This document shows, one piece after another, positions 29,694 to 62,798 of a DNA stretch of 64,000 bases. The notes beneath the pieces were generated by a model that had not been told where the DNA came from, made no database searches, and saw nothing but the letters and a program-made list of their open reading frames with translations. The stretch is from a virus: positions 29,657 to 93,656 of the IMG/VR virus record IMGVR_UViG_3300020045_017904. One strand, given 5' to 3'. How positions within the stretch are numbered: the stretch's first letter is position 1; every line of letters begins with the position of its first letter. Both the position numbers and the translations under genes were made by a program.

Positions 29694-31382
29694 TTAGATT
29701 GTATTTAAACCATCTATATATATTTTACCGAAATATTCAGGTCTTAACATCTTTTTAGCATATCTTGTAAGTAAACCTTTTCTTGGGGTAAATGTATCTG
29801 GGTCGTAAACAATTGGAGTTTGAATCAAGGCAACATAAGGTGCAAATACAGCTCCAGCTTCTAGGAATTGATTTCCTCTATATCCCATTAACATCAAGTT
29901 TTCAGTTAAATATGGGTTTTTGTAGATTTGATATCTTCCATTTAAAGATCCTGCTTTTTGTACTCCAAATGCATACTCCATTTGTGAAGCTTCTCCATTA
30001 CTTGTTGAAGCAAATCCTGGGATTGATTCAAGTATAGTTGCTACTGTTGGAGATGTTACTATCCAATTGGCTCCACCTCTTAATGTTAATTGGTGAATTT
30101 TGTTACTTAATTTTTGTACTTTAGTACCTAATGTTTGGAACCATGCACCTTGTGTGTTGTAATAAGCAGATGTTATTGTTCCAAATGCTGTTCCAGCTGC
30201 ATTTAATACTTGGTTGTTATTAGCACTCCAATACTCAGTTCCTGCTGCTGCATCTTCAATCAACATATCTAAGATTTCTAAATCAATTTCCATTGAAATA
30301 TATTCACTCATTATATTTGTTAATTCTTTTTCAGCATCAATATTTTGGTATGCTTCTAAATCTTGTTGAAACTCAGGAGTCCAAACTGCTTTTAATTTTT
30401 TAGTTTTCGCAGTAATACTTTGGCTTTGCATTTTAACATTAATCTCAGGGATTACTATTGTTGTTAAACTTGCTGAGTTAGGTATTGAGAATGAACCTGA
30501 TGTTGAATCTTCAAAATCACCTCTTAAATTATCGGCTGTTTCTTTATTATAGAAAACAACATATGAACCTGAGTTTGAGTTTGCTGTTGAAGCTGTTACA
30601 AAGAAGTTAAGTTCGTTGTTTATAGAATCATAATAGTGGAATTGTTGTAAGTTTTGTGCAGCTGTTATTGAACCTGAAGTTATAACAAATCCTCTTACTG
30701 CATCTCTGTCAAAATAAGGCAATGCTGATGTTGAACCAGTAATTACTAATCTTTTTATTGTTCCTGCAGCTACTGATGCTGAATAATTAGCATCAAATTT
30801 AATATCTGATAATGATGCAGAGTGAATATTTCCTGTATCTGATACTGAAGATGAGATAAATTGTGATGCTGAGAAGTTATTTGTAGAATATGTAAATCTT
30901 CCTGTTCCATATAAACCACCTGATGGAGCTAATGTTTGGAATGGGAATCTACCTGCTGAGTTTCTTTGTCCATAAAGTGATTCACCTGAGTTAAATGGAG
31001 TTTTTGTATTTCCATATTGGAAATCAAGGAAAAACACAAGTCCTGAAGGTAAATTCATTGGTTGAACTGAAACAAATTCTTTAGCAGCTATTTGAGAGAA
31101 TACTTTACGTACTAAAGGCAAAGCTATACCTGCCCAGTTTTCTGATTGTCCTACTGTAAAAGTTCCAGCTCCTGAACCAGCACCAGTTGTATTTACTTCT
31201 GTTACTAATTGTTTTGCTTGATTTTCAAGCATCAAAGCCATGTTATTTTTTTCAGTACCTTTTAAACCGTTTAATAATCCAGTTTTAGACCATTTATCAG
31301 CTAATTTTGCTGATTCTTTTTGGACTGTTTTCCATTCGTTTGCACTTTCTAAAAGTGATTGTATTGATGTTGTTGTGTTCAT
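29694..31382 (-). CDS. Major capsid protein (T4 gp23-like)
   Basis: LENQ, LPLVRKV, VSVQPMNLPSGL.F, AKTKKLKA.WT.E..QDL, EIDLEIL, FAPYV, FTPRKGLLTRY. Confidence 0.95.
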   Translation of the reverse strand: MNTTTSIQSLLESANEWKTVQKESAKLADKWSKTGLLNGLKGTEKNNMALMLENQAKQLVTEVNTTGAGSGAGTFTVGQSENWAGIALPLVRKVFSQIAAKEFVSVQPMNLPSGLVFFLDFQYGNTKTPFNSGESLYGQRNSAGRFPFQTLAPSGGLYGTGRFTYSTNNFSASQFISSSVSDTGNIHSASLSDIKFDANYSASVAAGTIKRLVITGSTSALPYFDRDAVRGFVITSGSITAAQNLQQFHYYDSINNELNFFVTASTANSNSGSYVVFYNKETADNLRGDFEDSTSGSFSIPNSASLTTIVIPEINVKMQSQSITAKTKKLKAVWTPEFQQDLEAYQNIDAEKELTNIMSEYISMEIDLEILDMLIEDAAAGTEYWSANNNQVLNAAGTAFGTITSAYYNTQGAWFQTLGTKVQKLSNKIHQLTLRGGANWIVTSPTVATILESIPGFASTSNGEASQMEYAFGVQKAGSLNGRYQIYKNPYLTENLMLMGYRGNQFLEAGAVFAPYVALIQTPIVYDPDTFTPRKGLLTRYAKKMLRPEYFGKIYIDGLNTI

Positions 31383-31413
31383 TTTTATATTTTTTGTTTT
31401 TTAAGTTTAAATG

Positions 31414-32400
31414 TTATTTTTCTGGAGATAGTCCTGCTATTTCCATCATTCTTGTAAATGCTTTGTTTGTTTCAATTATAGGAGTTTTTGTAGAATTACT
31501 ATTCATATTTTCTACTAATTTTATTGCACTCCCCATAATTTTTTTATTTTCAATTATTGGTTTTTTAGACTTGCTTAATCCTTCATTTAAAGTTTCATAT
31601 ACAAGTTCTACTTCTTTTTTAGTTTTTGTTTTATCAAATGCTCTTAATACTTTAATTTTTTGGTTTTCATTAAGATTTTTTGATTTAAAAATTTTATTTG
31701 AATAAAGTAATTTTGCGTTGAACAAATTAACTTCATTTAAAGTTTCTTTTAATTCATTTATTGTTTTTAATGCTTCTTTGTATTGATTTTTTAATGAAGA
31801 ATCTTCTTGAATTGGTTTTTTAACTTCTTTTGAATTTTTCAATTCATTCAATAATTCATCTATATCAATATCATCTTCATCATCTAAACCAAGAGCATCT
31901 TTAGTAGATAAATGATGTTCATCACCATATTCTTCTACTTCTTCAATTTCTGGTTCTTCTTCTAATGTTTCATTTTCACCTTCACCTGCTTTTAAATCAC
32001 CTGATGAAACCATATCTTGAATAACATCTTCAACAAATGCTTTTAAATCTGTTTCTGTCATGTTTTCTAAATCGATTTCTTCATCTTCTTCATTTTCTTC
32101 TTCCCCGTCTTTAGGTTCTTTAGGTTCTTTAGGTTCATCTTTTTTAGCTTCTAATTGTAAATCGTCGTCTTCTTCTAATCCTGCTAAAAGTTCATCTATG
32201 TCTGAATCTTCTGTTCCCATTTCTTCATTTTCGTCTAACTCATCTTCACTTTCCATTTCAGCTAATTTTGCTGATAATTTTTCTTTTAGGAATGGTGTAA
32301 ATGTTTCGTTTAAAGCTTGTGTTGCATTTTCGATAGCTGCTGCTTTAATTATTTTAGCATCTGCTATTGCTTCTTCAAGTAAATTTCTTTTTGGTGTCAT
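31414..32400 (-). CDS. Prohead scaffold/core protein (gp22-like)
   Basis: Acidic/coiled-coil protein directly upstream of the capsid gene; EAIADAK; LNEVNLFNAKLLY. Confidence 0.75.
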   Translation of the reverse strand: MTPKRNLLEEAIADAKIIKAAAIENATQALNETFTPFLKEKLSAKLAEMESEDELDENEEMGTEDSDIDELLAGLEEDDDLQLEAKKDEPKEPKEPKDGEEENEEDEEIDLENMTETDLKAFVEDVIQDMVSSGDLKAGEGENETLEEEPEIEEVEEYGDEHHLSTKDALGLDDEDDIDIDELLNELKNSKEVKKPIQEDSSLKNQYKEALKTINELKETLNEVNLFNAKLLYSNKIFKSKNLNENQKIKVLRAFDKTKTKKEVELVYETLNEGLSKSKKPIIENKKIMGSAIKLVENMNSNSTKTPIIETNKAFTRMMEIAGLSPEK

Positions 32401-32531
32401 TAAAATTTGGTTTTTTGTGGTTGTGTACGCTTATTAAAAATTAAAACGTAATAAGAAATAAAATATTTAATACAATATAGAACATTGCATATTCCCCTAT
32501 ACGTATATAGAAAAAAATAAAAATATAGAAA

Positions 32532-33203
32532 TTAAGTTAAAGTTTGTAAAAAAGGAATAATTTTAGATTCTAATAAACTATATCCTGAAGCATTTGGGTG
32601 TAATCCATCAGAAGTATATGTTCCAACATTACCTGCATTTATCCCCCCATTATTATATTGATCAAAACAAGGGATATTATTAACACTACAAAAATTAACT
32701 GTTGCAGCTGATAATTGTCCAACATTACCAGGAAAAATTTGACTACTTGTTTGAATAGCATAAGCTGGGGATAAATAAACTATATGTTTATTTGGAAACA
32801 TGGCTCTTAACCCATTATTCATTACTTTTAAAGCCCCATAATATGTTAAGAATGTGGTATCTGAAATATCACCTATTATTGTTGACATATCTGTTTCTGA
32901 ACCAGCAAAAGATGAATCATTAACTCCTCCTGATACAATTACTAAATCAACTCCACTACTTGATAAGGCTTGATAAACTCCTGATGATGCCATTCTAACA
33001 TCAGTACTAAAACCCCCATAACAACATAATCTTCTCCCATTGAAACCAAAATTATATATATTTGAAATGCCTGTAGCATTTTTTATTGCTGTAAAAGGGC
33101 TTCTGAAGTTTACAATAGAATCCCCAAAATAATCAGCTGTTATTCCATTTAAATTAAAATATGCTGCTCTTTCTGTGGTTCTAAAAGAATTTATATAATT
33201 CAT
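32532..33203 (-). CDS. SGNH/GDSL hydrolase (esterase/deacetylase)
   Basis: Blocks FGDSI, G.NG, GGVND and DGLHPN..GY. Confidence 0.85.
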   Translation of the reverse strand: MNYINSFRTTERAAYFNLNGITADYFGDSIVNFRSPFTAIKNATGISNIYNFGFNGRRLCCYGGFSTDVRMASSGVYQALSSSGVDLVIVSGGVNDSSFAGSETDMSTIIGDISDTTFLTYYGALKVMNNGLRAMFPNKHIVYLSPAYAIQTSSQIFPGNVGQLSAATVNFCSVNNIPCFDQYNNGGINAGNVGTYTSDGLHPNASGYSLLESKIIPFLQTLT

Positions 33204-33205
33204 TT

Positions 33206-34048
33206 TTATATATTATTTATACCATTAAATGTTTTTACTTCAGCTATTGGCATATTATTAAATGTTTTTACTTCAGCTATTGGTACTCCAAAAAAACTTT
33301 TTATTGAAGAAGCAACTGCTACTTCAGGTACAGAATATCTTTTTGATGGGATTATAAAATTATAAGTTGGGTTACTTAATATTTTTATTTCTGCTAATGA
33401 TGGTAATCTTTTATAACATCTTACATCACTTATCCACCCTCCAAATTTTTTAGAAAAATCACCAGATTGTGCCCCAATAACTGGGTATTCACCCCCTGCC
33501 ATAGTAATTGTTCCTATAGTACCTGTGCTTGTACCTACTTGTGTTCCATCTACATATAAAGTAACAGTATTACCATCACGAACCATTAATAAATGTTGCC
33601 ATTTTGTTGTACTTTGGGTACCAGCTTGTACTGAAACAATAGGATTACTACCATCCCCAGCAAAACATCTCCAATTACCAAATTGTCCTTGTATTTCAAA
33701 CCAAGTAGCAGTATTTGCTGATCTTCTCCAATTATAAAGAACATCATCCCCACCTATAGGATCAAAAGCCCAAAGAGATACAAAATATTGGGTTGGGGTG
33801 TCAGTCCATAATTGTGGAGTTGTTATATAATCTGTAGATCTATTAAATTTCCAAGACTGAAGATTATTATTTTTATTAAGAGCCCATTGAGGGTTTCCAA
33901 CAAAAGTTCCATGTTTACCATAACCTGATAAATCTGGAAGAGTTCTACCAGAACCTAACCCAATATAATGAGCAGCAAGACCTGTTCTAAGTCTTGGGTC
34001 TGTATTTTTGGGATTAAATACTCTTTGGCCTGAATGTTTATATCTCAT
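33206..34048 (-). CDS. LamG / concanavalin A-like lectin-domain protein
   Basis: DLSGYGKHGT; WQHL..VRDG....LYVDG; FGG.ISDVR.Y.R. Confidence 0.8.
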   Translation of the reverse strand: MRYKHSGQRVFNPKNTDPRLRTGLAAHYIGLGSGRTLPDLSGYGKHGTFVGNPQWALNKNNNLQSWKFNRSTDYITTPQLWTDTPTQYFVSLWAFDPIGGDDVLYNWRRSANTATWFEIQGQFGNWRCFAGDGSNPIVSVQAGTQSTTKWQHLLMVRDGNTVTLYVDGTQVGTSTGTIGTITMAGGEYPVIGAQSGDFSKKFGGWISDVRCYKRLPSLAEIKILSNPTYNFIIPSKRYSVPEVAVASSIKSFFGVPIAEVKTFNNMPIAEVKTFNGINNI

Positions 34049-34554
34049 TAAGTAACAGTTTCAGTAAATCCATACCAATTTATCATATGATTACTACCTG
34101 TAGAATTTAAATTCACACCTGTATTGTGCGTTACAAATATTACAAATTTTTTAGGAAGTAAACCTCCAAACAGAGCAGCAACTGATTTAAAACTAAAGGG
34201 ATAAGATATGTTGGATGTAGTAGAAACTACTGGGATAACATGGGCTAAAACTAATCCTGAATCTCTAACCTCAGCATTTGTTAATGTTTCTGCACTATCA
34301 GTACCATCTAATACATCAGGCCATGTTGGAGTATCATTTATAATAGCAGCAACATAAATTCTTATCTCTTTATTTGTTGTAGGTGTAGTACCAACGGTTA
34401 TTATACCTGATAAACCAACATCAAGAAATAAATTAGATGTATTATCAAATTCAGTTGATTCTCTTCCTGTTAAAAGGTTAGCATCTGTAGCAAGGGAAGC
34501 AAGAGTTATTGGTATTGACCCTGACCCAGCATATTTATTTTTAATTTCTGACAT
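34048..34554 (-). CDS. Hypothetical beta-rich structural protein
   Basis: Part of the fibre/lectin cluster. Confidence 0.55.
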   Translation of the reverse strand: MSEIKNKYAGSGSIPITLASLATDANLLTGRESTEFDNTSNLFLDVGLSGIITVGTTPTTNKEIRIYVAAIINDTPTWPDVLDGTDSAETLTNAEVRDSGLVLAHVIPVVSTTSNISYPFSFKSVAALFGGLLPKKFVIFVTHNTGVNLNSTGSNHMINWYGFTETVT

Positions 34555-34581
34555 AATTTTTTATTTTTGTTTCTTATATTT

Positions 34582-36534
34582 TTAAACATGTGTTATATAA
34601 TCATTACTAACATCTACATCTATTTCGTCTGTTGTATTTGCCCATCCTATTCTTCTTGTTACACTATCTGTTCCATTAGGGTATGTTTGAGTAATTGCTC
34701 CTGAAGATGTTGCAAGCATTACAGGGCCTGATACTGTAAATGTTGGGAACAATGAATCTGCTCTAATTTTCCCTCTAAACATAATTGTAGTTCCATTATT
34801 ATCATTTCCTGCAATAACACATATACCAACTCTTACATCCCCTGATGTACTACTTTGGCTTGCATTTGTTTTTACCCATTTACTACCTGAAGCTCTTAGG
34901 TATATGGCTTCTCCAAATGCTACTGTTTCTCCTAAAGTTCCTGATTCTGCTACAATTGCTGACCAGGTTCCATCTGCACTTAAAGCTGTATCTAATAGTA
35001 TACTTTTATTTTCAGCTAATACTAAATTTGATATTAGTGTACTACCACTAAATAAATTAACATAAGATGATGAAATTATTGCATATGAAGCTGTTAAAGC
35101 AGCATAACTTGTAGATACTGCTGTTAATGAACTTGTTATAGTATTAAAACTTGAAGTTGTTGTAAAGGAACTTGTTACCCAATCATATACTACTTTTGAA
35201 CCATAGTATGTAGTATTACTACTACTACCTGATAGTATATGTGTTACTTTATTTAAAGAATTTTCTGCACTTCCTGATTTTACTCTTATTGATTTAACAT
35301 CCCAACTTGCACTTCCGAAGGAAACTAATTCCCATTCATCATCAACAGAAGCAGAATAATTTACATTACCAGGTAATGTTAAATTTGCTGAATTTATTAA
35401 TACTAATGCTTCTTTAAATGTTAAATATTTTCTTGTACCTACTTGGGCTGTTGAAAATGATGAAATAGAAGCAGAACCAACTATATTAAGAGAATTTCCT
35501 AATGAAGGTCCTATATCTACTATAGTTGAGGCGGATAATGCTGAACCTGTTCTAAAATTTACAGGTCCTATAAAATTTCCCCCACTTAAATAATAACTTG
35601 TACTTGCAGCAAATGAAGCTGTTAATGAAGCATATGATGAAGAAACTGTTACAAATGAAGCTGAAGTTGAACTATATGATGCAGTTAATGAAGCATATGA
35701 TGATGAAAGAGCAGTTATATCACTTGGATTTAAAGCTGCAACTGAAGTTGAAACAGCTATAAATGAAGAGGAAACAACTATAAAAGATGCTGAAACTGTA
35801 TTATGTGATGCTGTTAAAGCAGCATAGCTGGTTGATACTGCGGAAAATGATGCAGTTAATGAAGCATATGAAGTTGAAACAGCGGAAAAAGATGCAGTTA
35901 AAGCAGCTAATGAAGTTGAAATGGCATTTATACTTGCAGTACTTAAAGTTGCTACAGAAGCTGATACTACACTATATGATGCAGTTAAAGAAGCATAAGA
36001 AGTTGAAACAGCATTAAAAGATGCAGTTAAAGAAGCATAAGAAGTTGAAACAGCATTAAAAGATGCAGTTAAAGAAGCGTAAGATCCTGAAACAACATTA
36101 AATGAAGCTGATGTAGTGTTAAAAGATGCAGTTAAAGAAGCATAAGAAGTTGAAACAGCGGAAAAAGAGGAAGTTAATGCAGCATAAGAAGTTGAAACTA
36201 CTGTTAATAATGCTAAATTTCCACTTATTTGAGGTTGTATACTACTTGTTACCCCTTTAACAAAACTTAATTCTGTTAAACTTGGATATGTTCCTGTTGG
36301 TAATGATCTTAATCCTTTATTTATATCTAAATGGGCAATAGTAAGATACTGTTCTGATGATAAGCTAGCTGTTTGTGGAAAATCAACTATATCAGTACTC
36401 ATACTAATAGGTAAATTTGCCCCATTCCCATCACTTAATTGTTTAAGAGATGAAGATACTGGATTATTATCTCCAAATTTTATTATACTATCAAAAGTAG
36501 TAGCTGGGGTTGACCCCGAAAATGATGTTCCCAT
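34582..36534 (-). CDS. Fibre-like structural protein with Ser/Thr/Ala heptad repeats
   Basis: Repeated SYASLTASF.AVST units followed by C-terminal beta-rich domains. Confidence 0.65.
   Translation of the reverse strand: MGTSFSGSTPATTFDSIIKFGDNNPVSSSLKQLSDGNGANLPISMSTDIVDFPQTASLSSEQYLTIAHLDINKGLRSLPTGTYPSLTELSFVKGVTSSIQPQISGNLALLTVVSTSYAALTSSFSAVSTSYASLTASFNTTSASFNVVSGSYASLTASFNAVSTSYASLTASFNAVSTSYASLTASYSVVSASVATLSTASINAISTSLAALTASFSAVSTSYASLTASFSAVSTSYAALTASHNTVSASFIVVSSSFIAVSTSVAALNPSDITALSSSYASLTASYSSTSASFVTVSSSYASLTASFAASTSYYLSGGNFIGPVNFRTGSALSASTIVDIGPSLGNSLNIVGSASISSFSTAQVGTRKYLTFKEALVLINSANLTLPGNVNYSASVDDEWELVSFGSASWDVKSIRVKSGSAENSLNKVTHILSGSSSNTTYYGSKVVYDWVTSSFTTTSSFNTITSSLTAVSTSYAALTASYAIISSSYVNLFSGSTLISNLVLAENKSILLDTALSADGTWSAIVAESGTLGETVAFGEAIYLRASGSKWVKTNASQSSTSGDVRVGICVIAGNDNNGTTIMFRGKIRADSLFPTFTVSGPVMLATSSGAITQTYPNGTDSVTRRIGWANTTDEIDVDVSNDYITHV
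35590..36200 (-). repeat. 42-bp (14-aa) coding tandem repeat array
   Basis: Exact units GATGCAGTTAAAGAAGCATAAGAAGTTGAAACAGCATTAAAA at 35978 and 36020, a partial copy at 36062, and degenerate copies on both sides. Confidence 0.9.
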
Positions 36535-36540
36535 TTTTTA

Positions 36541-36819
36541 TTATAAATCGTTAGTATCTTTTAAAGCACTATATACAAAAGCGGCACCTGAAGATTGACT
36601 AACTGCTGTTATTTGAGCATAGATAGGAATCCCCGCTTCGAAAGTATTTAAAATTGAACTTCCACTTGATATATTACCAGTAAAAATAGTTGCTACAGAT
36701 CTTGTAATAGGCATATACAAGAAAAAATATTGTCCACTTCCTGAAACTGAAGCTGAACCTGTTAAATATGTTCCACCTCCTAATCCATAAGGATGTCTAA
36801 ATTCATCTATTCTACTCAT
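36541..36819 (-). CDS. Small Ser/Gly-rich structural protein (candidate head decoration)
   Basis: LTGSASVSGSG; G.PIY..IT.V..SSG; has its own upstream promoter motif. Confidence 0.5.
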   Translation of the reverse strand: MSRIDEFRHPYGLGGGTYLTGSASVSGSGQYFFLYMPITRSVATIFTGNISSGSSILNTFEAGIPIYAQITAVSQSSGAAFVYSALKDTNDL

Positions 36820-36886: not shown

Positions 36887-37501
36887 CTAAAGAATAGGGC
36901 ATGAACCATTATTACATAAGATTTCAGTAATAATTTGATTAATTCTATTATACTTGTTTAGGTCTATTTTATTATTTTCTTGCCCTTCATTTATCATTTT
37001 TACCCAACTGTTTTTGTTTGAGGGTTGAGAAACAGCATCCCAAGTTATAAGGTCAAAGTCATCTTGAACCTCCATCTTACCCTCAGCTACTTGTTTTAGG
37101 CTTCCCATACCCCTACTAGAAACACCTACAGCAACCCCATTTTCTAATAAAGCTCTAAATATATTTCCACTTGTTGTTGGTAATATTTCTATTTTTCCTA
37201 AAATATTATTTCCATCCCACCAAACTTCTCTTATTATATGAGATACATTTTTTAATGAAACAATGTTTGAATCAGGATGATCTAATTCTCCTGTACTATT
37301 GTTTAATTTGATTTTTTCTTGAAATTTTCCAATTTCTCTTTCCCAAAGTTCACGTGGGTAAACTCTACCATTACCATTTTCTTTTTCAACAGTTGCTAAT
37401 GGTCCTTCAACAATCAAATTACCTGTAGAAGATTTTTGTCCTTCTCTAAGTGAGGTTGTCCAATTGAATATTTGGGTTTCTATAAGTAATTGTTTTGACA
37501 T
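36887..37501 (-). CDS. Prohead protease (T4 gp21-like)
   Basis: NGNGRVYP, GELDHP, VSH, GVSSRGMGS, WDAVSQPS. Confidence 0.93.
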   Translation of the reverse strand: MSKQLLIETQIFNWTTSLREGQKSSTGNLIVEGPLATVEKENGNGRVYPRELWEREIGKFQEKIKLNNSTGELDHPDSNIVSLKNVSHIIREVWWDGNNILGKIEILPTTSGNIFRALLENGVAVGVSSRGMGSLKQVAEGKMEVQDDFDLITWDAVSQPSNKNSWVKMINEGQENNKIDLNKYNRINQIITEILCNNGSCPIL

Positions 37502-37502
37502 T

Positions 37503-37733
37503 TTAAATTTGATCTATATAATTTACTATATAATTTTTGAAATCTGTTTTTTCAAATCCTTCTTGATATAAATCAGTAAATATAATTCTTAATTTATCTT
37601 GAAGTATCTTAAGATCTTGAGTATTAGCTAATCCTTCTATTCTTTCAAATGTTTCTAAATCTTGATTTTCATTAAGATCATCAACCCCAGCAATTTCTTG
37701 CATTCTTTCTATTTCATTTATTAGTTTTTTCAT
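37503..37733 (-). CDS. Putative internal head protein
   Basis: N-terminal ERMQEIAG motif and an LNE site. Confidence 0.55.
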   Translation of the reverse strand: MKKLINEIERMQEIAGVDDLNENQDLETFERIEGLANTQDLKILQDKLRIIFTDLYQEGFEKTDFKNYIVNYIDQI

Positions 37734-37735: not shown

Positions 37736-39772
37736 TTATCTTACAGTTAATTGTGTGATTTGATCTCTATATTTTTCGTGTTCAGGGTGTTGTTTTAGAT
37801 AAATATCAACAGCTTGTTTTACTGAACCTGCTTCTCCAGAATCTACTAAATCATCTAATTTATCTTTTATATTTGCAAATATAGTTTCCATTGATTCTTT
37901 CATTGTTTCTTCCATTCCTTCTCCCCCCATATTGTCTCCATCATCTTCATTATCAATTGGAGCCGCAGTTACTATTTTTTTCTTACCTTTAGTTTTTCTT
38001 TCATAAAGTTTTTCTAATTTAGATTTTGCTTTTTCCAATTCAGTGATTTCTTTTTGGATACTTTTAATTTTTACAGGATCTACAAATTCTTGTAAATCAT
38101 CCATTTGCTCAGCCATAGTAATTTTGTCTTTTAAACGTTTTACTTCGTTTACAATGCATTCAATATTGGCCTCCAACGCTAGTTCCTCACTCACGGTTTG
38201 GTATGATTTAAGACGCGATAAAACATCATTCTTTTTAGGTTTTTTTACGACTGAAACTTGTGATTTTTCTTTTTCTTCATTCTCATGAAGAGCTTTTCTT
38301 ACAATTTCTTTTATATTAATTTTCATATTTATATTTTCATTTATATTTTCATTTATATTTTCAGCATATTGAGCAGCAGGATCATCTTCATATCCATAAT
38401 GTTTTCCCCCTGCAGGATCAGTCCATTCTTCATCATCTAATAATTTAACATATTGTTTAATTGTTGAACTACCTAATTCAATATATTTACCATCATCAAA
38501 TTGGAATAAAAAACCTTTACCAACTGAACTACCTGGAGTTATTTTTGGGTTTTTCATACTTAAACCAATATAAGTTATAGGTAAATCTTCCGCACCCATT
38601 GTCCAATTATATTTTTCTCCTTTATCTAAATTTTTATAAACTAGATGATTTAAATCATCTTGAGATTCATCCAATTTATCATCAGATTCTCCATCAATAT
38701 AATGTGGTTCACCTTTTGGGTCTATTGCACAATCATCTTGGTCATTATAAGATTCTTCATCTAAACTATTTACATAACGACTAACATTAGTACTAAGCCA
38801 ATCAGGTAAATCATCAAATTTCTCTATCCCAGCATATTTTTCAGCATCATCTGGATCTTTACAATATTGTGCTAATATATCTTCTCTTTGTTCATATGTT
38901 AATTCTGACCAATAGATATTATCTTTATCTCCAGTCATTTCCTTTATGTTTGCATATCCAGGAACAATTATTAATTCTTTTTTATCTGCATATTTTTTTG
39001 CTTCTTCTGGAGAATCAAACCTCATATCAATTTGAGCCATACCATCAGGTCTTTCTAAAACATAAATTGTAGTTTCTCCTTTACCTGAAGGAGATATCAT
39101 TACTTCTTCTCCTTTAGTACCCATATAACTACTTTCACTTATTAATTTAACTAATGAAAATTTGGATTCATTTAAATCTTTTTTATCAATATCACCATAC
39201 CCACTCCCAGCATACTTACCTTTTGGTTCTTTGGTTTTTTCAGCTTCTTTATAACCTACTCCTTTTATACCAAATTGTCCGTCTTTAACATAATGGTTTA
39301 TGTCTTTTGCTAAATTTTTTCTTACAATTTCTTTTAATTCATCTACTGTTTTATCCTTGTTTTCAGGATCTTTCATTTCAGTATAATAAGCATTTAAAAA
39401 TGTTTGACCATACACATTATCAATGTTTTTATCATTTTTATTATCAAATGCTTTCTTTTGAACGTTTAAAACTTCTTTGTCAGGTTGAGTATCATCTTTT
39501 TTCTTTGCTTCAGTTATAATACCTTTTTGAAGATTTCTCATACTATTTTTGAAGATATCCTGATAGTCAGAAGCTTGTAAATTAGCTCCTTTTTCAATTG
39601 GGTTTGAAATATTTTCAAATAATAAAGATTTCTCTTTTAGTATTTTAACAGCTTCATTATATGAAGTATATTGGTTTGTGTATTGAGGAAATATTCTTCT
39701 AACATTTTTCATGAAGAAGTCTTTGTTACCTTTTCCTTCTTGTATTTGTTGATATTGTTGTTGTATGTTCAT
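37736..39772 (-). CDS. Large acidic putative head/internal (poly)protein
   Basis: Between portal and protease; many [LI]xE sites; V.KNL.KD..Y motif. Confidence 0.6.
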   Translation of the reverse strand: MNIQQQYQQIQEGKGNKDFFMKNVRRIFPQYTNQYTSYNEAVKILKEKSLLFENISNPIEKGANLQASDYQDIFKNSMRNLQKGIITEAKKKDDTQPDKEVLNVQKKAFDNKNDKNIDNVYGQTFLNAYYTEMKDPENKDKTVDELKEIVRKNLAKDINHYVKDGQFGIKGVGYKEAEKTKEPKGKYAGSGYGDIDKKDLNESKFSLVKLISESSYMGTKGEEVMISPSGKGETTIYVLERPDGMAQIDMRFDSPEEAKKYADKKELIIVPGYANIKEMTGDKDNIYWSELTYEQREDILAQYCKDPDDAEKYAGIEKFDDLPDWLSTNVSRYVNSLDEESYNDQDDCAIDPKGEPHYIDGESDDKLDESQDDLNHLVYKNLDKGEKYNWTMGAEDLPITYIGLSMKNPKITPGSSVGKGFLFQFDDGKYIELGSSTIKQYVKLLDDEEWTDPAGGKHYGYEDDPAAQYAENINENINENINMKINIKEIVRKALHENEEKEKSQVSVVKKPKKNDVLSRLKSYQTVSEELALEANIECIVNEVKRLKDKITMAEQMDDLQEFVDPVKIKSIQKEITELEKAKSKLEKLYERKTKGKKKIVTAAPIDNEDDGDNMGGEGMEETMKESMETIFANIKDKLDDLVDSGEAGSVKQAVDIYLKQHPEHEKYRDQITQLTVR

Positions 39773-40227
39773 TATTTTTTTGTTGGTGGGTTATAATTTT
39801 TCTTGAACCAAAGTTTTAATGCAGATGGATTTGTTTGATATATTGAACCAAATTCATTTTCAAAATTTGAGTATATTTCATCCCAACCTGTTTTTATTGG
39901 GGGGTATTTAGATAATTCTAATTCTCCTCCTCTAAATCCAGCACCATTTCCATCTATATCCCCATCATTATCACCTTGAAATCCTTCTTTCATATTTTCA
40001 TAAACATTCAATAAACTCATTGATTCATTTTTCTTAGTTTTCAATGCTAATAATTGTTTACTAATATCTCTTATTTCATCTGTAAAATTAGTTATATCTT
40101 GGTAAACAGCATCTATTGTACCAGGTTCAAATTCTGCTCCTTGAATTAAACTTTGTATTTCTAATTCTAGGTTTTGCATTTTGATTTTTAATGCTTTTAC
40201 TTTAGCTCTTGTTGAGGTCGGGTTCAT
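39772..40227 (-). CDS. Hypothetical head-region protein
   Basis: Translationally coupled ORF in the head block. Confidence 0.55.
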   Translation of the reverse strand: MNPTSTRAKVKALKIKMQNLELEIQSLIQGAEFEPGTIDAVYQDITNFTDEIRDISKQLLALKTKKNESMSLLNVYENMKEGFQGDNDGDIDGNGAGFRGGELELSKYPPIKTGWDEIYSNFENEFGSIYQTNPSALKLWFKKNYNPPTKK

Positions 40228-40463
40228 TATAAATTATGTGATAATTTTTTAATTGTATTAAGAAGAGATTTTGCATCTTCTATAACTAAGTTTATAGAAT
40301 CTTTATTAATATCATCAACACTATTTTTTATTATAGTAGCTAATTCTATTATTTTATCCTTATATTCTTTATTAAAAGAACCATCAAAAAATCCAGTAAC
40401 ATCCCTTGTTCCTTCTTTTTGTATTTGTTCTTTAATAAGTTTTTTTAATTCACTTTTTTTCAT
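40227..40463 (-). CDS. Putative internal head protein
   Basis: Begins MKKSELKKLIKEQI. Confidence 0.55.
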   Translation of the reverse strand: MKKSELKKLIKEQIQKEGTRDVTGFFDGSFNKEYKDKIIELATIIKNSVDDINKDSINLVIEDAKSLLNTIKKLSHNL

Positions 40464-40470: not shown

Positions 40471-40851
40471 TTAATTTTCTATTTTATCAAATAAATTATT
40501 TACTATAGCATCAAATTCTTCTTCTGCTGTTTGAATATCTTCTTCATTTGTTATCCACCAATATTCTTCGTCTTCCTCATTATCATAATCCAATTTAATA
40601 CCAGCAGATTGTAATTTTTGAATTATTTCTCTTTTAAGTTCATCTTTTGGTCCTATAAATGCAACTTTTTCACCTAAAAATAATTGATTCTTCAAATTAT
40701 CAGCTTCATTTTTAATAAATTCAGCTTCTTCTTTACTTACAATGATATTTCCATTATTGCTTGAATAATAACCTCCATCAGAGGCTGTTTTCTCTTCTTC
40801 TGTTATTAATCCAGCCAACACTTGCATTCTTTTTATTTCATTTAATATCAT
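40471..40851 (-). CDS. Putative internal head protein
   Basis: Begins MILNEIKRMQVLAGLITE. Confidence 0.55.
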   Translation of the reverse strand: MILNEIKRMQVLAGLITEEEKTASDGGYYSSNNGNIIVSKEEAEFIKNEADNLKNQLFLGEKVAFIGPKDELKREIIQKLQSAGIKLDYDNEEDEEYWWITNEEDIQTAEEEFDAIVNNLFDKIEN

Positions 40852-41180
40852 TATTTAAACATTTTTAATAAATCATTCATATAATCTATAACTAAACCAG
40901 TACTATAAATTATTGGTTCTTTTGATCCTTGTTTGTATTGTTCTATTGTATCTTGTTTTGCTTTTTGCAATAAAGGTAATAGTTCATTCATTTGGTTTTC
41001 AATAGTAGTAAATTGATTAATTCTTTCTACTATTTTTGGATCAGTTATTTCTAATTCTTCTTCTTTAAGTTTTTTTTTACCTTTAAAAGCAAATGGAGTT
41101 GAATAAGAACCAACATCTCCAGAAACAGACATTTCCTTAATTCTTTTTTTTATAATTTCCTTAAGTTCTTGACGTTTCAC
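40851..41180 (-). CDS. Putative prohead core/internal protein
   Basis: Begins MKRQELKEIIKKRIKE; contains YSTPFAF. Confidence 0.55.
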   Translation of the reverse strand: MKRQELKEIIKKRIKEMSVSGDVGSYSTPFAFKGKKKLKEEELEITDPKIVERINQFTTIENQMNELLPLLQKAKQDTIEQYKQGSKEPIIYSTGLVIDYMNDLLKMFK

Positions 41181-42034
41181 TTTAAATCTTTTATTTCTTG
41201 TAAAAGTTCCCCATATTGTAATAAATTAACTAAATGATCATTATTAATTTTCTCATTTTTATCTAATTCAGTTAATAATTTATTAACTTCATTTATTTTA
41301 ATATGGGTTGCTTTATCTTCTACTTTTTTGTTATATTTTTCTAATTCTTGTTTTATTTCATTTAATTTTGAATTATAAAATATTTTTAACTTAACAGGAT
41401 TATCAACAATATTAATAAATTCTTTTAATATGGATTTTTGAATAGAATTTAAATCATTATATTTTTTATTAAAATTTTCAATTAAAATTCTATAAGTTAA
41501 TATACGAGTATCTTTGTCATATGCTTTAAATTCTTCCATTACCCCTTCCTCAATTTTTTTAACATTCGTATAGTTTGATGTTAAATGTTCTAAAATATAG
41601 GATTTATTCGAAATTAATTGATTTGGGTCAATTTTATTACCATTATATATTTCAAGTAAAGTATATAATGAAGCATAAAGTTTATAATTTGGGGACTTTG
41701 TTTTAAAAAATTCCTCTATATTATAATTTTCACTAATTCTTTTAATTAAATTATATTTTTGTCTATTTAAAACTTCTTTATTAAGGTTTTTTGAACTTTC
41801 AACCAAAGAACTAATAATCATTTCTGATTTGCCTTCTGTTAAATTTCTTTTATTTGATATTATTTCATATAATTTATATTCTCTCCCTAGTTCTGTTTTC
41901 ACAAAAAACTCCCTAAGAATAGGTAAAATCTTTGATTCTTTACCAGATAAAGTATCACTTACTATTTGGTGGATACATAATTCAAATATTATTCCTGTAT
42001 TTTTTAATTTGTTGTGTTTAATATTTACAGCCAT
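41177..42034 (-). CDS. Hypothetical protein downstream of portal
   Basis: IKH.K.KNTGI.FEL; helical; head-block synteny. Confidence 0.65.
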   Translation of the reverse strand: MAVNIKHNKLKNTGIIFELCIHQIVSDTLSGKESKILPILREFFVKTELGREYKLYEIISNKRNLTEGKSEMIISSLVESSKNLNKEVLNRQKYNLIKRISENYNIEEFFKTKSPNYKLYASLYTLLEIYNGNKIDPNQLISNKSYILEHLTSNYTNVKKIEEGVMEEFKAYDKDTRILTYRILIENFNKKYNDLNSIQKSILKEFINIVDNPVKLKIFYNSKLNEIKQELEKYNKKVEDKATHIKINEVNKLLTELDKNEKINNDHLVNLLQYGELLQEIKDLK

Positions 42035-42059
42035 TAAGTGATTTATTATAAATATATAT

Positions 42060-46744: not shown

Positions 46745-47424
46745 GATATTTTATATTTCCATATAAATTTTCCTGCTGTTTTATTTGCTCCACTTAAAGC
46801 AAGATTTATATTTAATATATTGGTAATATTTTTAGCATCTTTAATACTAGGCCATTCTTTTATAAGATTACCTTTTAAATCAAATTGACTAATAGGAATA
46901 TATTTTTTAGAAATTGCTTCTAAAGTATGTTTATATTTATTATCTTTATTAGGAGATTTTCTACCTTTAAAAGGTTGAGTCTTACCCTTCATAGGACATA
47001 TTCTTCCTTTAAGGGATTTACTTATTATATCCCCAAATCCTAAAGGTTTGGGTTTTTTCATTTTTTGAATTATATCATCAGTATAATAAATTGAATGGTT
47101 TTTTAAAGAATTTTTGATTTTTTGTTTGGTTTCTTCATTACAAACCCCCCTACCTTTCCCCAATCTACAATTTAAACCTTTATTTAATGAATCAAAATGT
47201 AATCCCCAAAATATTTCTCTTTCATCTAATTCTTCTATTTTACAATATTCAATTATTTCGAAGATATGAGTTGAAAAATTATATTTATTTAAAGAATTAA
47301 ATAATTTAATTCCTATACTATTTTTAGCATTTCTTGAATATTCTAAAAATCTTCTTTCAATATTAATACTTTGACCAATATATATTCTTCCTTTAGGATT
47401 TGTTATTTTGTAAATTCCTATCAT
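46741..47424 (-). CDS. GIY-YIG homing endonuclease with NUMOD-type domains
   Basis: GIYKITNPKGRIYIGQS; ISQFDLKGNLIKEWPSIKDA...KTAGKFIW. Confidence 0.88.
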   Translation of the reverse strand: MIGIYKITNPKGRIYIGQSINIERRFLEYSRNAKNSIGIKLFNSLNKYNFSTHIFEIIEYCKIEELDEREIFWGLHFDSLNKGLNCRLGKGRGVCNEETKQKIKNSLKNHSIYYTDDIIQKMKKPKPLGFGDIISKSLKGRICPMKGKTQPFKGRKSPNKDNKYKHTLEAISKKYIPISQFDLKGNLIKEWPSIKDAKNITNILNINLALSGANKTAGKFIWKYKIS

Positions 47425-50676: not shown

Positions 50677-50701
50677 TTATTAGAAATATTTATTATAAAT
50701 A

Positions 50702-56908: not shown

Positions 56909-56912
56909 ACGC

Positions 56913-56944
56913 GAAATATACAACTTTTATTTGTCAGAATCAAC
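56913..56944 (-). promoter_or_regulatory. Variant -33/-7 promoter for denV, probably leaderless
   Basis: GTTGA-N19-TATATTTC-GCGT-ATG; same spacing as the other copies. Confidence 0.5.
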
Positions 56945-57737: not shown

Positions 57738-57789
57738 ATCAATAAATATGTAAGTGTTAGTTTTCTATTTAGAGGATTGGGATTAAAAT

Positions 57790-58386
57790 CTATTTTTTTG
57801 AAAAAGATTTCGTAAAATCATAATATGCAACTCTGTTTTTTGGAGTCTTATCAAGAGTAAATTCCATATCATTTTTTAATCTTGTAATAATAATTTCTTC
57901 ATCATTTACAAAATCTATTTGAATTTCTTCTCCTTGTCTTATTGTTATATATTCTAAGGGTCCTAATTGAATTTTATAATCTTTATTAGCAATTAATATA
58001 TCTCCTTCTTTAACTCCAAAACCAACATCTTCTTTTAAAAATGTTTCTAATATCAACCCTCCACCCTTAACTTTATATTTTCCAAAATCAGTATTTTCAA
58101 ATAATTTTTTATCTTCACCTTTAAGTTCAAGAATTCCTTTATCAAATAATATTCTTGCTTCTCTAATTAATTTTGGATTACCAATACGTTTAATTTCGTT
58201 TATTAACGGTTTTTTAGCGTCTATTAACGCTCTAAATTGTTCAGATATAGGGTACGTATGTTTTAATGATTCATTGAGTAAAGACACAGAATTGCCACAG
58301 TGATTGCATCCGCAAGAGCAAGATTTTTTCTTGGGTTTATAATTTTGTAAGGTTTCTTTAATTATTTTATCTAATTTTGAATTCAT
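57790..58386 (-). CDS. Hypothetical protein (CSCGC..C motif; putative head-associated)
   Basis: LDKIIKETL N-terminus; LLNE and FLKE sites. Confidence 0.55.
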   Translation of the reverse strand: MNSKLDKIIKETLQNYKPKKKSCSCGCNHCGNSVSLLNESLKHTYPISEQFRALIDAKKPLINEIKRIGNPKLIREARILFDKGILELKGEDKKLFENTDFGKYKVKGGGLILETFLKEDVGFGVKEGDILIANKDYKIQLGPLEYITIRQGEEIQIDFVNDEEIIITRLKNDMEFTLDKTPKNRVAYYDFTKSFSKK

Positions 58387-58399
58387 TTGTTATAAATAT

Positions 58400-59930: not shown

Positions 59931-59948
59931 AACAGTTGATTTACTTCG

Positions 59949-59980
59949 TAAATATAAGTAAATTAGTTATGTTAACCAAA
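59949..59980 (-). promoter_or_regulatory. Bacteroidota-type -33/-7 promoter
   Basis: TTTGG-N19-TATATTTACG. Confidence 0.65.
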
Positions 59981-59981
59981 T

Positions 59982-60434
59982 TTATTCTTCGGGTTCTTCT
60001 TCTTTTTCTGGTTCTACTTCTGTTTTTTCAACTTCATTTTGACCATAATAAAGTAATCTTGATATTGATTCTATTGCTCTACCTTGTTCTCCTACATTTT
60101 TTAAATAATATTTTTTACCTGAGGATTGTGCTATCCAACTTCTATTTGAAAAAATCAAATAAAAAATTTCATCATTATTAAATACTATTCTAAATGTGGT
60201 TGGTAGTGGAGCAACCCATTGAATATCTTTTATAAATAAATCATATTGATTTGTTAGTAATTCAATTATTACTTGTTTTAATTCAGGAAATTTTGTTAGG
60301 ATTGGAAATTTTTCATAATCAATAGTTATGCTTTGTTCTATTGGTTCATCAAGACTTATTTCAGAAGTAAATATTTTATTATATACTTGTGGTATTATGT
60401 TTTTAATTCTATCCTTAAGTTCTTGAGGTTTCAT
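59982..60434 (-). CDS. Hypothetical, putative head-associated protein
   Basis: Begins MKPQELKDRIKNII; P.PTTFRI motif; acidic tail. Confidence 0.6.
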   Translation of the reverse strand: MKPQELKDRIKNIIPQVYNKIFTSEISLDEPIEQSITIDYEKFPILTKFPELKQVIIELLTNQYDLFIKDIQWVAPLPTTFRIVFNNDEIFYLIFSNRSWIAQSSGKKYYLKNVGEQGRAIESISRLLYYGQNEVEKTEVEPEKEEEPEE

Positions 60435-60437
60435 TAA

Positions 60438-61109
60438 TTATTCAAAATTTTCTAATTTTGTAACATACCTTGGATAATCATAACCTTGTGAGTCGTAAAA
60501 ATAAAATTCCCCATTACATTTTAATATTCCATATTGCTCATCTCCTATATTTATATCTAAAATATTTTCATCATCTCCTAATAATTCATCAACATTTATA
60601 ATATTTAATTTATTTAATGATTTTTTTACTCTACTTTGATATGTTGGTCTTAATCTTTTTAAATCTACTTCAAATGAAACGTCGGCAAAATTTGTAGGCT
60701 TTCTATCCCCTTGTAATGAATTATATATTGATTTATCTGTTTCAGTTTCTTCTTTGTCATAAAAAGGATCATCCTCTTCATTTATCCCAGATAATTTTTC
60801 AGCTCTTTTATTCATTACTAACTCAGCATCTTTACCGTATCTTTTTACAAATTGGTGTTTGGCAGGTTTTAAGTTATTTAAAATATCTTCTTGTTTATCT
60901 TCTTTAATAAGAAATTCTGTTGGACAATATTGGTTATATAATTGTTTCCATTCCTCTTCACCAACTTCTTTTTTTAATAAATTGATTGCTTCTTCTTCCT
61001 TTTGTCCTTTAAGATAACCTCTTCTTGAATCTGTATGATCATCAGACATCATATACCACCAATCGTGGTTTTTTAACAATTTGATTAAGGTTTCTTTAGG
61101 GTTTTGCAT
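60438..61109 (-). CDS. Hypothetical protein (HDW.Y..SDD domain; modular)
   Basis: Segments separated by LIKE and INEE. Confidence 0.6.
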   Translation of the reverse strand: MQNPKETLIKLLKNHDWWYMMSDDHTDSRRGYLKGQKEEEAINLLKKEVGEEEWKQLYNQYCPTEFLIKEDKQEDILNNLKPAKHQFVKRYGKDAELVMNKRAEKLSGINEEDDPFYDKEETETDKSIYNSLQGDRKPTNFADVSFEVDLKRLRPTYQSRVKKSLNKLNIINVDELLGDDENILDINIGDEQYGILKCNGEFYFYDSQGYDYPRYVTKLENFE

Positions 61110-61851
61110 TTTGTATTATATTAAAAATATTATTATGTTTGTCTCTATTACCTATATAATTATGATAACCAAAGGATTTAGCTATTTCTGTTGTTTTAAA
61201 TAATGGTTGAAGATTAGTATAATGGAACAAATAAATTAAATCTTCTTTATTTTTTGCTTTTGAAGTAGGTATTATATGGTCAATTTCCCAAATATCACCC
61301 CAATTATCCCAATTCATTTCTTTTAAAAATTTTTGTTCTAAATAATTCTTAACAAAATCAAAAGATTCTCCTATTAGTTTTTTAGTAGTTTCTTGTTTCT
61401 TATATCCTGTTTTAGTAAATATTTTTGAAACTTGGGATCTTAAATTAACAGTTAATTTAAATAATTTATCATTTTCTTTTCTTTGTTTTCTATATTGATT
61501 TTGTTTAAATCTTATATTATCTCCTTCTATACTATTTAATTTTTGTTTTTGTTCTTTACTAATTTTATCCTTATTTAAAACATACCATTTTTGGTTTTTT
61601 TCTTTAATTATAGCTAAATTATTATTATAATACTCTTTTTGATATTCTAATATTTTTTCTATATTATCTTGTTGGTAGATTTTTTGATTTTGTTTTCTTA
61701 CTTCATGATTATTATAATAATTTTCATTACTTTTTAATTTATGACATTCTTTACAAGAACCCTTAAAGGAATTAATATTTTTATTTTCATAATAAAAATT
61801 ATTAAAATTTAATTCTTTAGGTATTTTACAATTATTACAAACTCGTTGCAT
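61096..61851 (-). CDS. HNH / endonuclease VII-like free-standing endonuclease, copy 4
   Basis: CNNC...CKEC; MNWDNWG..WEIDHIIP...FHYTNLQPL. Confidence 0.75.
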   Translation of the reverse strand: MQRVCNNCKIPKELNFNNFYYENKNINSFKGSCKECHKLKSNENYYNNHEVRKQNQKIYQQDNIEKILEYQKEYYNNNLAIIKEKNQKWYVLNKDKISKEQKQKLNSIEGDNIRFKQNQYRKQRKENDKLFKLTVNLRSQVSKIFTKTGYKKQETTKKLIGESFDFVKNYLEQKFLKEMNWDNWGDIWEIDHIIPTSKAKNKEDLIYLFHYTNLQPLFKTTEIAKSFGYHNYIGNRDKHNNIFNIIQNAKP

Positions 61852-62581
61852 TAGTAGTACTTCTAATAAGATATACTAAAGTGTTCCCTATTTGATTTAT
61901 AAGTTTTTCATCACCTAATGCTTTGGCTTCTTCTTGAGCTTGAGTTAAATGTTTTTGAATTAAACTCATTTCACCCCCTCCACTATTTGATGTATCAATA
62001 CTCATTTCTTCTCCAGATGGTTCTTCGTCTGCTAAATCAGGAATTTCAATATCTTCTTCTTTATCTTTTTTCTTTGGTTTTAAATTTTTTTCAGCTAAAA
62101 TCATTTCTTTGATTTTGGTTTTGAATTCAGATTTTTTCATTTTACCTTTTAATTCTTCATACAATCCTTTTTCTCCATGAGATACAGTTACATCGCCATT
62201 AAGATCTTCTAAATCAGGTTCATCTTCATCAAAAAATACCACAACTCCACTTGGGTCATTATTATAATTAAATAAAGTTGGACCATAACTTGGTATATCA
62301 ATTATTACCAAATCATAATTTTGAGGTCCATCATCTTCATCATTTACTTCCCAATCCTCTAAAAGATCTTTATATTTAGATTTTAAAAGTTCATCATATG
62401 TTCCTTTCCAAATTATTTTTCCTTGTTCATTATTCCATTCTCCACCAGCATTGGGATTTTCAAAAGCCACATCCCCCACTTTTACATCTTGGTAATCTTT
62501 TATAGGTTTACCTTGTGGCTCCTGATTTTCTGTTATCAAACCTGCAATTTCTTGCATTCTTTTTAGTGGATTATTTTTCAT
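61835..62581 (-). CDS. Putative internal head protein
   Basis: N-terminal KRMQEIAGLITE and internal MKKSEFKTKIKEMILAE. Confidence 0.6.
   Translation of the reverse strand: MKNNPLKRMQEIAGLITENQEPQGKPIKDYQDVKVGDVAFENPNAGGEWNNEQGKIIWKGTYDELLKSKYKDLLEDWEVNDEDDGPQNYDLVIIDIPSYGPTLFNYNNDPSGVVVFFDEDEPDLEDLNGDVTVSHGEKGLYEELKGKMKKSEFKTKIKEMILAEKNLKPKKKDKEEDIEIPDLADEEPSGEEMSIDTSNSGGGEMSLIQKHLTQAQEEAKALGDEKLINQIGNTLVYLIRSTTNATSL
62242..62362. repeat. 121-bp exact direct repeat, copy 1
   Basis: Identical to 63880-64000. Confidence 0.95.
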
Positions 62582-62603
62582 TGTTGTGTTTTCGTTATAA
62601 ATA

Positions 62604-62798
62604 TTAAATGTTTTTCTTTAAATCAAAGTAAAAATAAGATTCAGTAGGATATTCATTAGTAAATTTGTCACCTAATTGATTAGAAAGAAATTTATGTATT
62701 TTAAAAGCCAATGTAGGTGTTAATTTAACTTCATCTAATTCTTCTTTTAATGTCTGAATCTCTTCTAAAATTAAATTTTTTATATCTTGTCTTTTCAT
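62604..62798 (-). CDS. Putative internal head protein
   Basis: Begins MKRQDIKNLILEEI..LKE. Confidence 0.55.
   Translation of the reverse strand: MKRQDIKNLILEEIQTLKEELDEVKLTPTLAFKIHKFLSNQLGDKFTNEYPTESYFYFDLKKNI

Follow-up and report, generated by a model that had tools for sequence, protein, structure and literature searches.

Short leaders on unrelated proteins of an uncultured T4-type phage, one of them matching the end of the scaffold, are candidate capsid-loading signals

Why do otherwise unrelated proteins of a phage begin with one of two short peptides, one of which also ends the scaffold protein? The question arises from a 64,000-nucleotide stretch of viral DNA (positions 29,657 to 93,656 of IMG/VR record IMGVR_UViG_3300020045_017904; hereafter, the window). 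Between positions 29,694 and 62,798 of the window, a preliminary description had reported motif A (RM[QM].[IL]AG[LV]) and motif B (counted here in the strict form MK.[SQ][ED][LIF]K..I at residue 1) and had proposed that they address cargo proteins to the capsid. Both motifs are real and lie far above chance. We consider it probable (about 0.65) that they are clip-off leaders that load proteins into a T4-type prohead, a reading that is well supported by sequence comparison and is plausible but unproven.

The window belongs to a viral contig of 93.6 kb, whose proteome of 132 open reading frames (ORFs; 30,103 amino acids) was the base for the motif counts. The guanine-plus-cytosine content of the window is 25%, and every long ORF in it is on the minus strand; the 29.6 kb of contig upstream of the window carry replication and nucleotide genes. 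A record search found no near-identical phage record. Among cultured phages, the closest are Flavobacterium phage immuto (capsid protein, 53% identity), Microcystis phage Mel-JY01, and Rhodothermus phage RM378. Three head genes are needed first; ORFs are named below by their first coordinate.

29694 to 31382, minus strand: major capsid protein, gp23 family, 562 amino acids (Pfam Gp23 PF07068, E 1.7e-72)
31414 to 32400, minus strand: gp22-like scaffold, 328 amino acids, directly upstream of the capsid gene (28% identity to the immuto scaffold, E 2e-39)
36887 to 37501, minus strand: prohead protease, T4 gp21/Peptidase_S77 family, 204 amino acids (Pfam PF03420, E 1e-28)

The scaffold ORF had no match in Pfam or PHROGs, and similarity to T4 gp22 was not detectable; its position, length, and helical Glu/Lys-rich composition are compatible with a gp22-type scaffold, and it is homologous to the scaffolds of related phages (the clade). 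Motif A occupies its residues 317 to 324 (TRMMEIAGLSPEK; DNA positions 31429 to 31452) and is the conserved extreme C-terminal peptide in 34 of 34 distinct clade scaffolds, which were drawn from protease-anchored loci and whole genomes. In immuto, Mel-JY01, and RM378, the last scaffold residues are ..RWQKLAGIIK, ..RMKKLAGIVK, and ..RIKRLAGL, respectively; the scaffold of jumbo phage LR756508 has a variant, ..RMQKLADIS. An [LIV]xE site lies at most 20 residues upstream of motif A in 28 of the 34 scaffolds and exactly 6 residues before it in 19 (for example, KKPILE/VNNQVSRWQLLAGIKK, where the slash marks the predicted cut). In the window scaffold, the site PIIE ends 6 residues ahead of the motif (PIIE/TNKAFTRMMEIAGL). 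When scaffold genes of canonical T4-like phages were compared (L060, L199, L200, and L201), those of T4, cyanophage S-RIM2, pelagiphage HTVC008M, and a Vibrio schizoT4 phage were found to end with another motif, S.Y..A.AR[FW]. Scaffold tails are thus conserved inside a lineage but differ from one lineage to another. The C terminus of T4 gp22 was rejected as the source of motif A.

By analogy with T4, and judging from a conserved site in the capsid protein, the protease should cut after [LIV]-x-Glu. The predicted propeptide of the capsid protein ends with ..ENQAKQLVTE at residue 62, and the putative site, LLENQAKQL[VI]xE, is conserved throughout the clade (approximately 30 relatives), directly ahead of the mature domain. 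The protease shares 33% identity with T4 gp21, and the two align across the His and Ser motifs (GELDHP and GVSSRG); a QLLIE site near its own N terminus is also conserved.

Motif A had four matches in the contig proteome, at the scaffold C terminus and near the starts of ORFs 37503, 40471, and 61835. Five proteins begin with motif B (ORFs 40227, 40851, 48028, 59982, and 62604), and an internal copy lies at residue 148 of ORF 61835 (DNA positions 62099 to 62140). All of these had been listed correctly. In 2,000 per-protein shuffles, motif A never appeared and a looser form of it had a mean of 0.05 matches; the mean for a looser N-terminal form of motif B was 0.01. The 29.6 kb that precede the window on the contig contain neither motif. 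Of the "roughly ten" carriers originally counted, eight are solid. The other two, with a different leader (ORF 37736) and with a B-like helix that is not countable as motif B (ORF 57790), are given here beside them.

37503 to 37733, minus strand: 76-amino-acid protein; A tag (residues 10 to 17), DDLNE, and a 51-residue module that matches the C-terminal 50 residues of a protein of relatives
37736 to 39772, minus strand: conserved head-module protein, 678 amino acids, with its own leader, MNIQQQYQQIQE/GKG, and a variable C-terminal part; about 40 homologues
40227 to 40463, minus strand: 78-amino-acid protein; strict motif B start, MKKSELKKLIKE/; no family match
40471 to 40851, minus strand: 126-amino-acid protein; A tag, MILNEIKRMQVLAGLITE/ (motif at residues 8 to 15); no family match
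40851 to 41180, minus strand: small conserved head-module protein, 109 amino acids; motif B, M(GTG)KRQELKEIIKKRIKE/MSVSG; conserved gene position
48028 to 50676, minus strand: 882-amino-acid protein; strict motif B start, MKKSDLKQSIQE/; six [LI]NE sites
57790 to 58386, minus strand: 198-amino-acid protein of a C.CGC..C family; variable B-like leader (MNSKLDKIIKE/T); homologues with differing leaders
59982 to 60434, minus strand: 150-amino-acid member of a conserved family; leader helix MKPQELKDRIKNII, flexible linker, alpha/beta domain, and acidic tail (alignment A4)
61835 to 62581, minus strand: 248-amino-acid protein; A tag at residues 8 to 15 and then ITE/, a variable insert, motif B at residue 148, and a helical hairpin (alignment A2)
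62604 to 62798, minus strand: 64-amino-acid protein; motif B start, MKRQDIKNLILE/EI, a leader variant shared with larger proteins

BLASTP similarity among the tagged window proteins was confined to their first 15 to 20 residues, in agreement with the earlier statement that the sequences are unrelated past the motif. A protease-type site had been said usually to follow the motif within a few residues. Such a site follows all three A tags (LNE, ITE, and ITE). Four of the five B-tagged proteins have one that ends at residue 12 or 16; ORF 59982, whose first site ends at residue 30, departs from the pattern. The codons used vary among the motif copies (Ser, AGT/TCA/TCT; Ala, GCA/GCT; Gly, GGA/GGG/GGT), and conservation is therefore at the protein level. 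A DNA-repeat or recombination-linker origin of the motifs was rejected on this ground.

Such N termini might also have no capsid role: an AT-rich genome may generally favor amphipathic starts rich in Lys and Glu, or the peptides may direct proteins to another destination, such as a chaperonin or a membrane. MKK starts are common in this genome, GroEL and GroES are both encoded on the contig, and the loose B pattern fits the N termini of the terminase and the scaffold and resembles the start of a 5'-3' exonuclease-like ORF (2152 to 3189). However, the strict motifs are absent from the shuffles, their codons vary, and motif A matches the scaffold tail over 8 residues and is followed by protease-type sites far above background. 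Additionally, strict motif B is absent from Mel-JY01 and RM378, where motif A occurs only at the scaffold C terminus. We regard an origin of this kind as very improbable. As to the related concern that the motifs might be equally common on nonstructural proteins, the strict forms are absent from the replication half of the contig, but the loose B form fits the terminase, and for this reason only strict motif B was counted.

The tags recur in uncultured relatives, among which 137 distinct protein starts with an N-terminal A tag were identified. A search of IMG/VR with a back-translated RMQxLAG[LIV]ITE pattern gave at least 119 matching stretches. Of the 95 matches in the first set, 84 had the motif 5 to 14 residues into the ORF, and the tagged genes were often in tandem. 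The commonest form of the tag, M..E.LRMQMLAGIITE[GS][QE]YKAKLNE, contains two protease-type sites. For 18 of the 19 tags that had been collected without requiring ITE, an [LIV]xE site fell within 8 residues (background, 0.145). In the ITE-selected set, the next [LIV]xE site ended 7 to 11 residues past ITE in 46% of cases versus 9.5%, most commonly at +9 (44 of 118). The strict B leaders of relatives behave as in the window: 19 of 22 have a site ending at residue 12 or 16.

With the tags stripped, 172 proteins fell into 111 families (92 with A tags and 19 with B tags), and only a few of 91 tagged representatives matched Pfam (3) or PHROGs of unknown function (5). The occurrence of the tags on more than 100 unrelated families in relatives bears out the claim that they are modular and portable. 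One common tag variant was present in at least 818 database protein clusters of 60 to 193 amino acids; among the 120 of these that were listed, all came from metagenome-dominated sources, and none had a Pfam domain. An S77 protease was encoded in all three of the most complete tag-bearing genomes tested (two 100% and one 82% complete). In relatives G001 and G002, a motif A scaffold adjoins the S77 protease, and there are 4 and 2 N-terminally tagged ORFs, respectively. In the whole genome of immuto, A tags were found on two proteins and B-type leaders on five, every one of them annotated as hypothetical; carriers of the two tag types include gp42, gp175, gp176, gp187, gp190, and gp198. The immuto phages were the only tag carriers found among 50,697 phage records at tblastn sensitivity.

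The distribution of motif A also bears on its origin, which had been proposed to lie in the scaffold. All clade scaffolds carry the motif, and the whole proteomes of Mel-JY01 and RM378 carry it at the scaffold C terminus only, with no tagged proteins, which indicates that the scaffold motif is older and the tags are derived. These two proteomes were scanned directly; a 17-position A-tag profile missed even the Mel-JY01 scaffold end, and its negatives were disregarded. The LADIS variant was found on a tag in L094, and the 41.6-kb stretch of LR756508 that was examined had no tags.

The identity of the tag with the scaffold's C-terminal peptide would also suit accessory scaffolds or assembly modulators, that is, proteins that join or compete with the scaffold in the manner of SaPI1 CpmB and the phage 80alpha scaffold, tune assembly or fill the core, and are then degraded and expelled instead of being delivered to the host. 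Many of the tagged proteins are small, acidic, and poorly structured, and four are encoded within the head module. However, 111 unrelated families, tandem arrays, and fast turnover are features of a variable cargo set, and some tagged proteins have well-folded conserved domains. We consider assembly modulators to be quite unlikely as the explanation. One such folded protein belongs to the family of ORF 59982, whose model has a helix at residues 3 to 23, low confidence at residues 22 to 36, and a domain at residues 44 to 130 with predicted local distance difference test (pLDDT) values of 80 to 89; Foldseek found no match to it in the PDB at an E value of 0.001 or less. The model of ORF 61835 is poor (mean pLDDT, 52), with helices at residues 5 to 18 (the A tag) and 150 to 164 (the internal motif B). 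These models suggest that the tags are separate helices ahead of flexible linkers.

Tags and sites also mark borders inside longer proteins. Relatives encode a protein of about 270 residues that consists of an A tag, a spacer (AYEYEKGKEAGEK), motif B, an acidic stretch, DEKLxxQIGNxLTYFTR, a P.LNE site, and a 50-residue C-terminal module. In the window, ORF 61835 ends just before the position of the P.LNE site, and the 50-residue module is a separate gene, ORF 37503, 24 kb away and adjoining the protease gene, with its own A tag fused directly to DDLNE. This natural split at LNE indicates that module borders coincide with predicted protease sites, and the A tag of ORF 37503 indicates that a module that becomes a separate gene gains a tag. 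Signs of modular construction are also present in ORF 48028, with six [LI]NE sites versus 1.2 expected (P = 0.0014), in ORF 37736, and in immuto gp191, which has the ORF 59982 domain as its C terminus, behind an internal B-like helix. ORF 37736 had been credited with a weaker motif B at its start. Its leader is instead that of its own family, whose approximately 40 homologues begin with MKTLQxQYxLIKE/GKG; the B-like stretch, MKINIKEIVRKAL, is internal, at residue 483, where it follows INE-INE-IN and precedes a domain that in other phages is encoded beneath B-type leaders.

This arrangement could mean that the tags are cleavage cassettes only, in which helices with [LIV]xE serve as protease-docking elements or inactivating propeptides without capsid addressing and entry into the prohead, if any, occurs by other means. 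Leaders do stand at internal module borders, often right after [LI]NE (ORF 61835, residue 148; ORF 37736, residue 483), and internal leaders are likewise found in immuto gp191 (at about residue 672) and in G002 ORF 67235-68569, which has two internal A tags. The built-in IKE and ITE are also the most constant part of the tags. Against cleavage alone, motif A stands at the very end of the scaffold with no site beyond it, which argues for a role other than being cut. Furthermore, a protease confined to the prohead cuts only substrates that enter, and the same 10 residues of T4 do both targeting and cutting (PMC9026906). Cleavage without addressing is, in our judgment, unlikely.

If the tags are clip-off loading leaders, the following mechanism may be proposed. 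Motif A would be the peptide by which the C-terminal end of the scaffold grips a partner in the prohead; the likeliest partner is the capsid protein, on its inner face, with the scaffold core as the alternative. At maturation, cutting at the [LI]xE site 6 residues before the scaffold motif would free the scaffold body. Placed at an N terminus and followed by ITE or LNE, motif A would dock other proteins to the same partner during assembly, and the protease would then free them inside the head. Motif B (MKKSELKxxIKE/) would be a second leader of like kind, built as the T4 leader MKTYQEFIAE/, and its model copy may be the conserved small head-module protein, ORF 40851. In ORFs 48028, 37736, and 61835, leaders and [LI]NE sites would mark module borders at which the proteins are cut into pieces. 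Ejection of the released proteins into the host, also put forward at first, would follow by analogy with T4. In its fullest form, the proposal is that motif A is a natural portable capsid-loading peptide: about 12 residues that tie the scaffold to the interior of a T4-type shell, or alternatively to the core, would have been copied onto more than 100 cargo families. These families would be spread over a large group of aquatic Bacteroidota phages, and the protease sites would be so placed that both scaffold body and cargo are released. We advance this fuller proposal tentatively and judge it somewhat less probable than an even chance.

Several observations weigh against capsid loading. The terminase, whose N terminus fits the loose B pattern as does that of the scaffold, is not packaged, and several tagged genes in both immuto and the window lie outside the structural modules. 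None of the 111 families mixes A and B members, so that swapping of A for B was not seen. The tags are mostly RMQ.LAG whereas the scaffolds have RWQ, RFQ, or RMK.LAG, and there is no close tag-scaffold tracking; EIAGL, common to tag and scaffold in the window, is a single case, and too few genomes carry both elements for covariation within genomes to be assessed. Leaders within long proteins would be dispensable for targeting, and a pure cleavage role fits them equally well. The partner suggested above for motif A is a guess. Finally, we found no virion proteome for the window phage, immuto, or Mel-JY01 and no N-terminal mapping or binding data for the first two.

The closest known counterpart is the capsid-targeting sequence (CTS) of T4, known since the 1990s; Mullaney and Black reportedly described it for the T4 internal proteins in 1996. 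These internal proteins include anti-restriction factors, and an Asp-10 mutant of the CTS still carries a reporter into proheads. To our knowledge, what the CTS binds is not settled, the contact of T4-type scaffolds is still undefined, and the CTS has been traced mainly in close T4 relatives. The CTS is carried by IPII and IPIII as well as by IPI and Alt (reviewed in PMC9026906 and PMC3012670), and the first 10 residues of IPIII, MKTYQEFIAE, are enough for packaging and are cut off by gp21 (PMC9026906). As in T4, the leaders of the window phage are short (10 to 20 residues), are N-terminal on otherwise unrelated, fast-changing proteins, and end with a predicted [LI]-x-Glu site for a gp21-family protease, within a head-gene framework of gp20, gp21, gp23, and a gp22-like scaffold. 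Motif B also has the same build as MKTYQEFIAE (an MK start, a helix, and a terminal I-x-E). In contrast, motifs A and B are unrelated in sequence to the T4 peptide, and neither occurs in T4, which has exactly two copies of MKTYQEFIAE that are identical as DNA too, whereas the window copies vary in codons. Motif A copies the C-terminal peptide of the scaffold, suggesting a partner, and a mirrored putative release site lies on the scaffold. Two or three leader types are present in the window phage, some inside multimodule proteins, and the set of carriers is far larger and more varied than in T4.

Other systems share parts of this design. The C-terminal peptide of the herpesvirus scaffold binds the major capsid protein, is shared by the protease-scaffold protein, which has to get into the procapsid, and is cut upstream by the capsid protease (M site). 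The cut just upstream at maturation parallels the [LI]xE site 6 residues before motif A; however, the herpesvirus peptide stays C-terminal on two nested gene products and is not, as here, N-terminal on many unrelated proteins. CpmB of SaPI1 copies the capsid-binding C-terminal residues of the phage 80alpha scaffold to enter the procapsid, and in it too an unrelated protein bears a copy of a scaffold C terminus. CpmB differs in that it redirects capsid size for a satellite, has no protease site and no cargo family, and carries the peptide at its C terminus. Cargo-loading peptides of encapsulins are short, portable, found on diverse cargo, and bound inside an HK97-fold shell, but they are usually C-terminal and not cut by a protease, in a system with neither scaffold nor DNA. 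The giant phages phiKZ and SPN3US have a protease related to gp21 that processes numerous head proteins after Glu, and their internal proteins form a large set (PMC5694885, PMC7411985). The site motif is different, and no shared scaffold-derived leader is known to have been described in them.

The T4 logic and the protease family were already known, and what appears to be new, from the sequences compared here, is a leader that copies the scaffold tail; a literature search found no published description of these motifs or of scaffold-mimicking tags. Because the leader is recognizable as the scaffold tail, one can ask directly whether the capsid protein or the scaffold binds it. If it is a portable loading peptide, it would name the contact of T4-type scaffolds and explain how CTS-like leaders function, and it would reveal a large pool of uncharacterized proteins delivered with DNA as candidates for roles in host takeover or anti-defense. 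The tag is a search handle for hundreds of small phage proteins without families, possibly injected with the DNA, and a natural loading peptide of this size that comes with its own release site might be used to pack proteins into phage heads. A cultured host-phage pair exists, namely, immuto, the only cultured phage with the tag, on Flavobacterium sp. LMO8.

The remaining features of the carriers concern individual families. In the family of ORF 37736, a gene just upstream of the protease gene, an N-terminal part of 190 residues is conserved, whereas total length ranges from 183 to 678 amino acids. The C-terminal extension varies greatly in this family, and domains are exchanged between it and the B-tagged proteins of other phages. 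The C-terminal domain of ORF 37736 recurs beneath B-type leaders in L061, L136, L155, and L156; the ..IKQIILEEI leader variant of ORF 62604 also starts larger proteins in the same four. Homologues of ORF 40851, which has a GTG start, occur at the same location in immuto (gp198), Mel-JY01, G001, and G002, all with ..[IL]KE/MS. For the 882-residue ORF 48028, neither Pfam nor the ESM Atlas gave a lead. In the family of ORF 57790 (G001, G002, L133, L175, L097, and L108), a C.CGC[NH]..C cysteine cluster comes straight after a variable amphipathic leader. The weaker motif B first ascribed to ORF 57790 proved to be a B-like helix only, and the leader of the L133 homologue is a strict MKKSELK. The families of ORFs 57790, 59982, and 61835 form a gene cluster that is conserved among related phages.

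The head module contains three further genes.

39772 to 40227, minus strand: untagged ORF, 151 amino acids; no motif; weak match to a PHROG of unknown function
41177 to 42034, minus strand: untagged conserved protein, 285 amino acids, directly after the portal gene; 41% identity to immuto gp197, with homologues also in G001 and G002
42060 to 43949, minus strand: portal protein, T4 gp20 family (Pfam Portal_T4, E 4.4e-67)

The four tagged genes of the head module lie between portal and protease, an interval that we take to be the location of core genes 67 and 68 in T4. The interval between scaffold and protease (32532 to 36819, minus strand) holds five genes, including a GDSL/SGNH hydrolase (32532 to 33203), a Laminin_G_3/concanavalin-like protein (33206 to 34048), and a 650-amino-acid protein; these five may be head decoration or fiber genes. 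The same interval has only two small ORFs in immuto and no convincing gene in G001 and G002. The large terminase is fragmented (43979 to 47424, minus strand) into an N-terminal ORF of 66 amino acids (46544 to 46744) and a body of 838 amino acids (43979 to 46495). A free-standing GIY-YIG endonuclease gene (46741 to 47424) precedes the N-terminal ORF, and residues 199 to 556 of the body weakly match intein-splicing domains; relatives have a single TerL of about 525 amino acids.

The N termini of scaffolds show a further resemblance. That of T4 gp22, MLKEQLIAEA, resembles the CTS, MKTYQEFIAE, in that both are helices ending with IAE (L060, 4118 to 4927; W04:65689-66415), and clade scaffolds begin with ..DLLKEAIA[DE]AK, which is loosely like motif B. 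The scaffold N terminus may be another source of N-terminal leaders.

A recurring noncoding element, ATATTTATAA[TC], stands on the coding strand of the window 11 to 32 nucleotides ahead of 13 start codons and occurs once on the other strand (example sites are 62594 to 62603, 58389 to 58398, 50692 to 50701, 42045 to 42054, and 22340 to 22349). It precedes the tagged genes 61835, 57790, and 48028, the head gene 41177, and the sheath gene, as well as some nonstructural genes, and is a candidate phage promoter.

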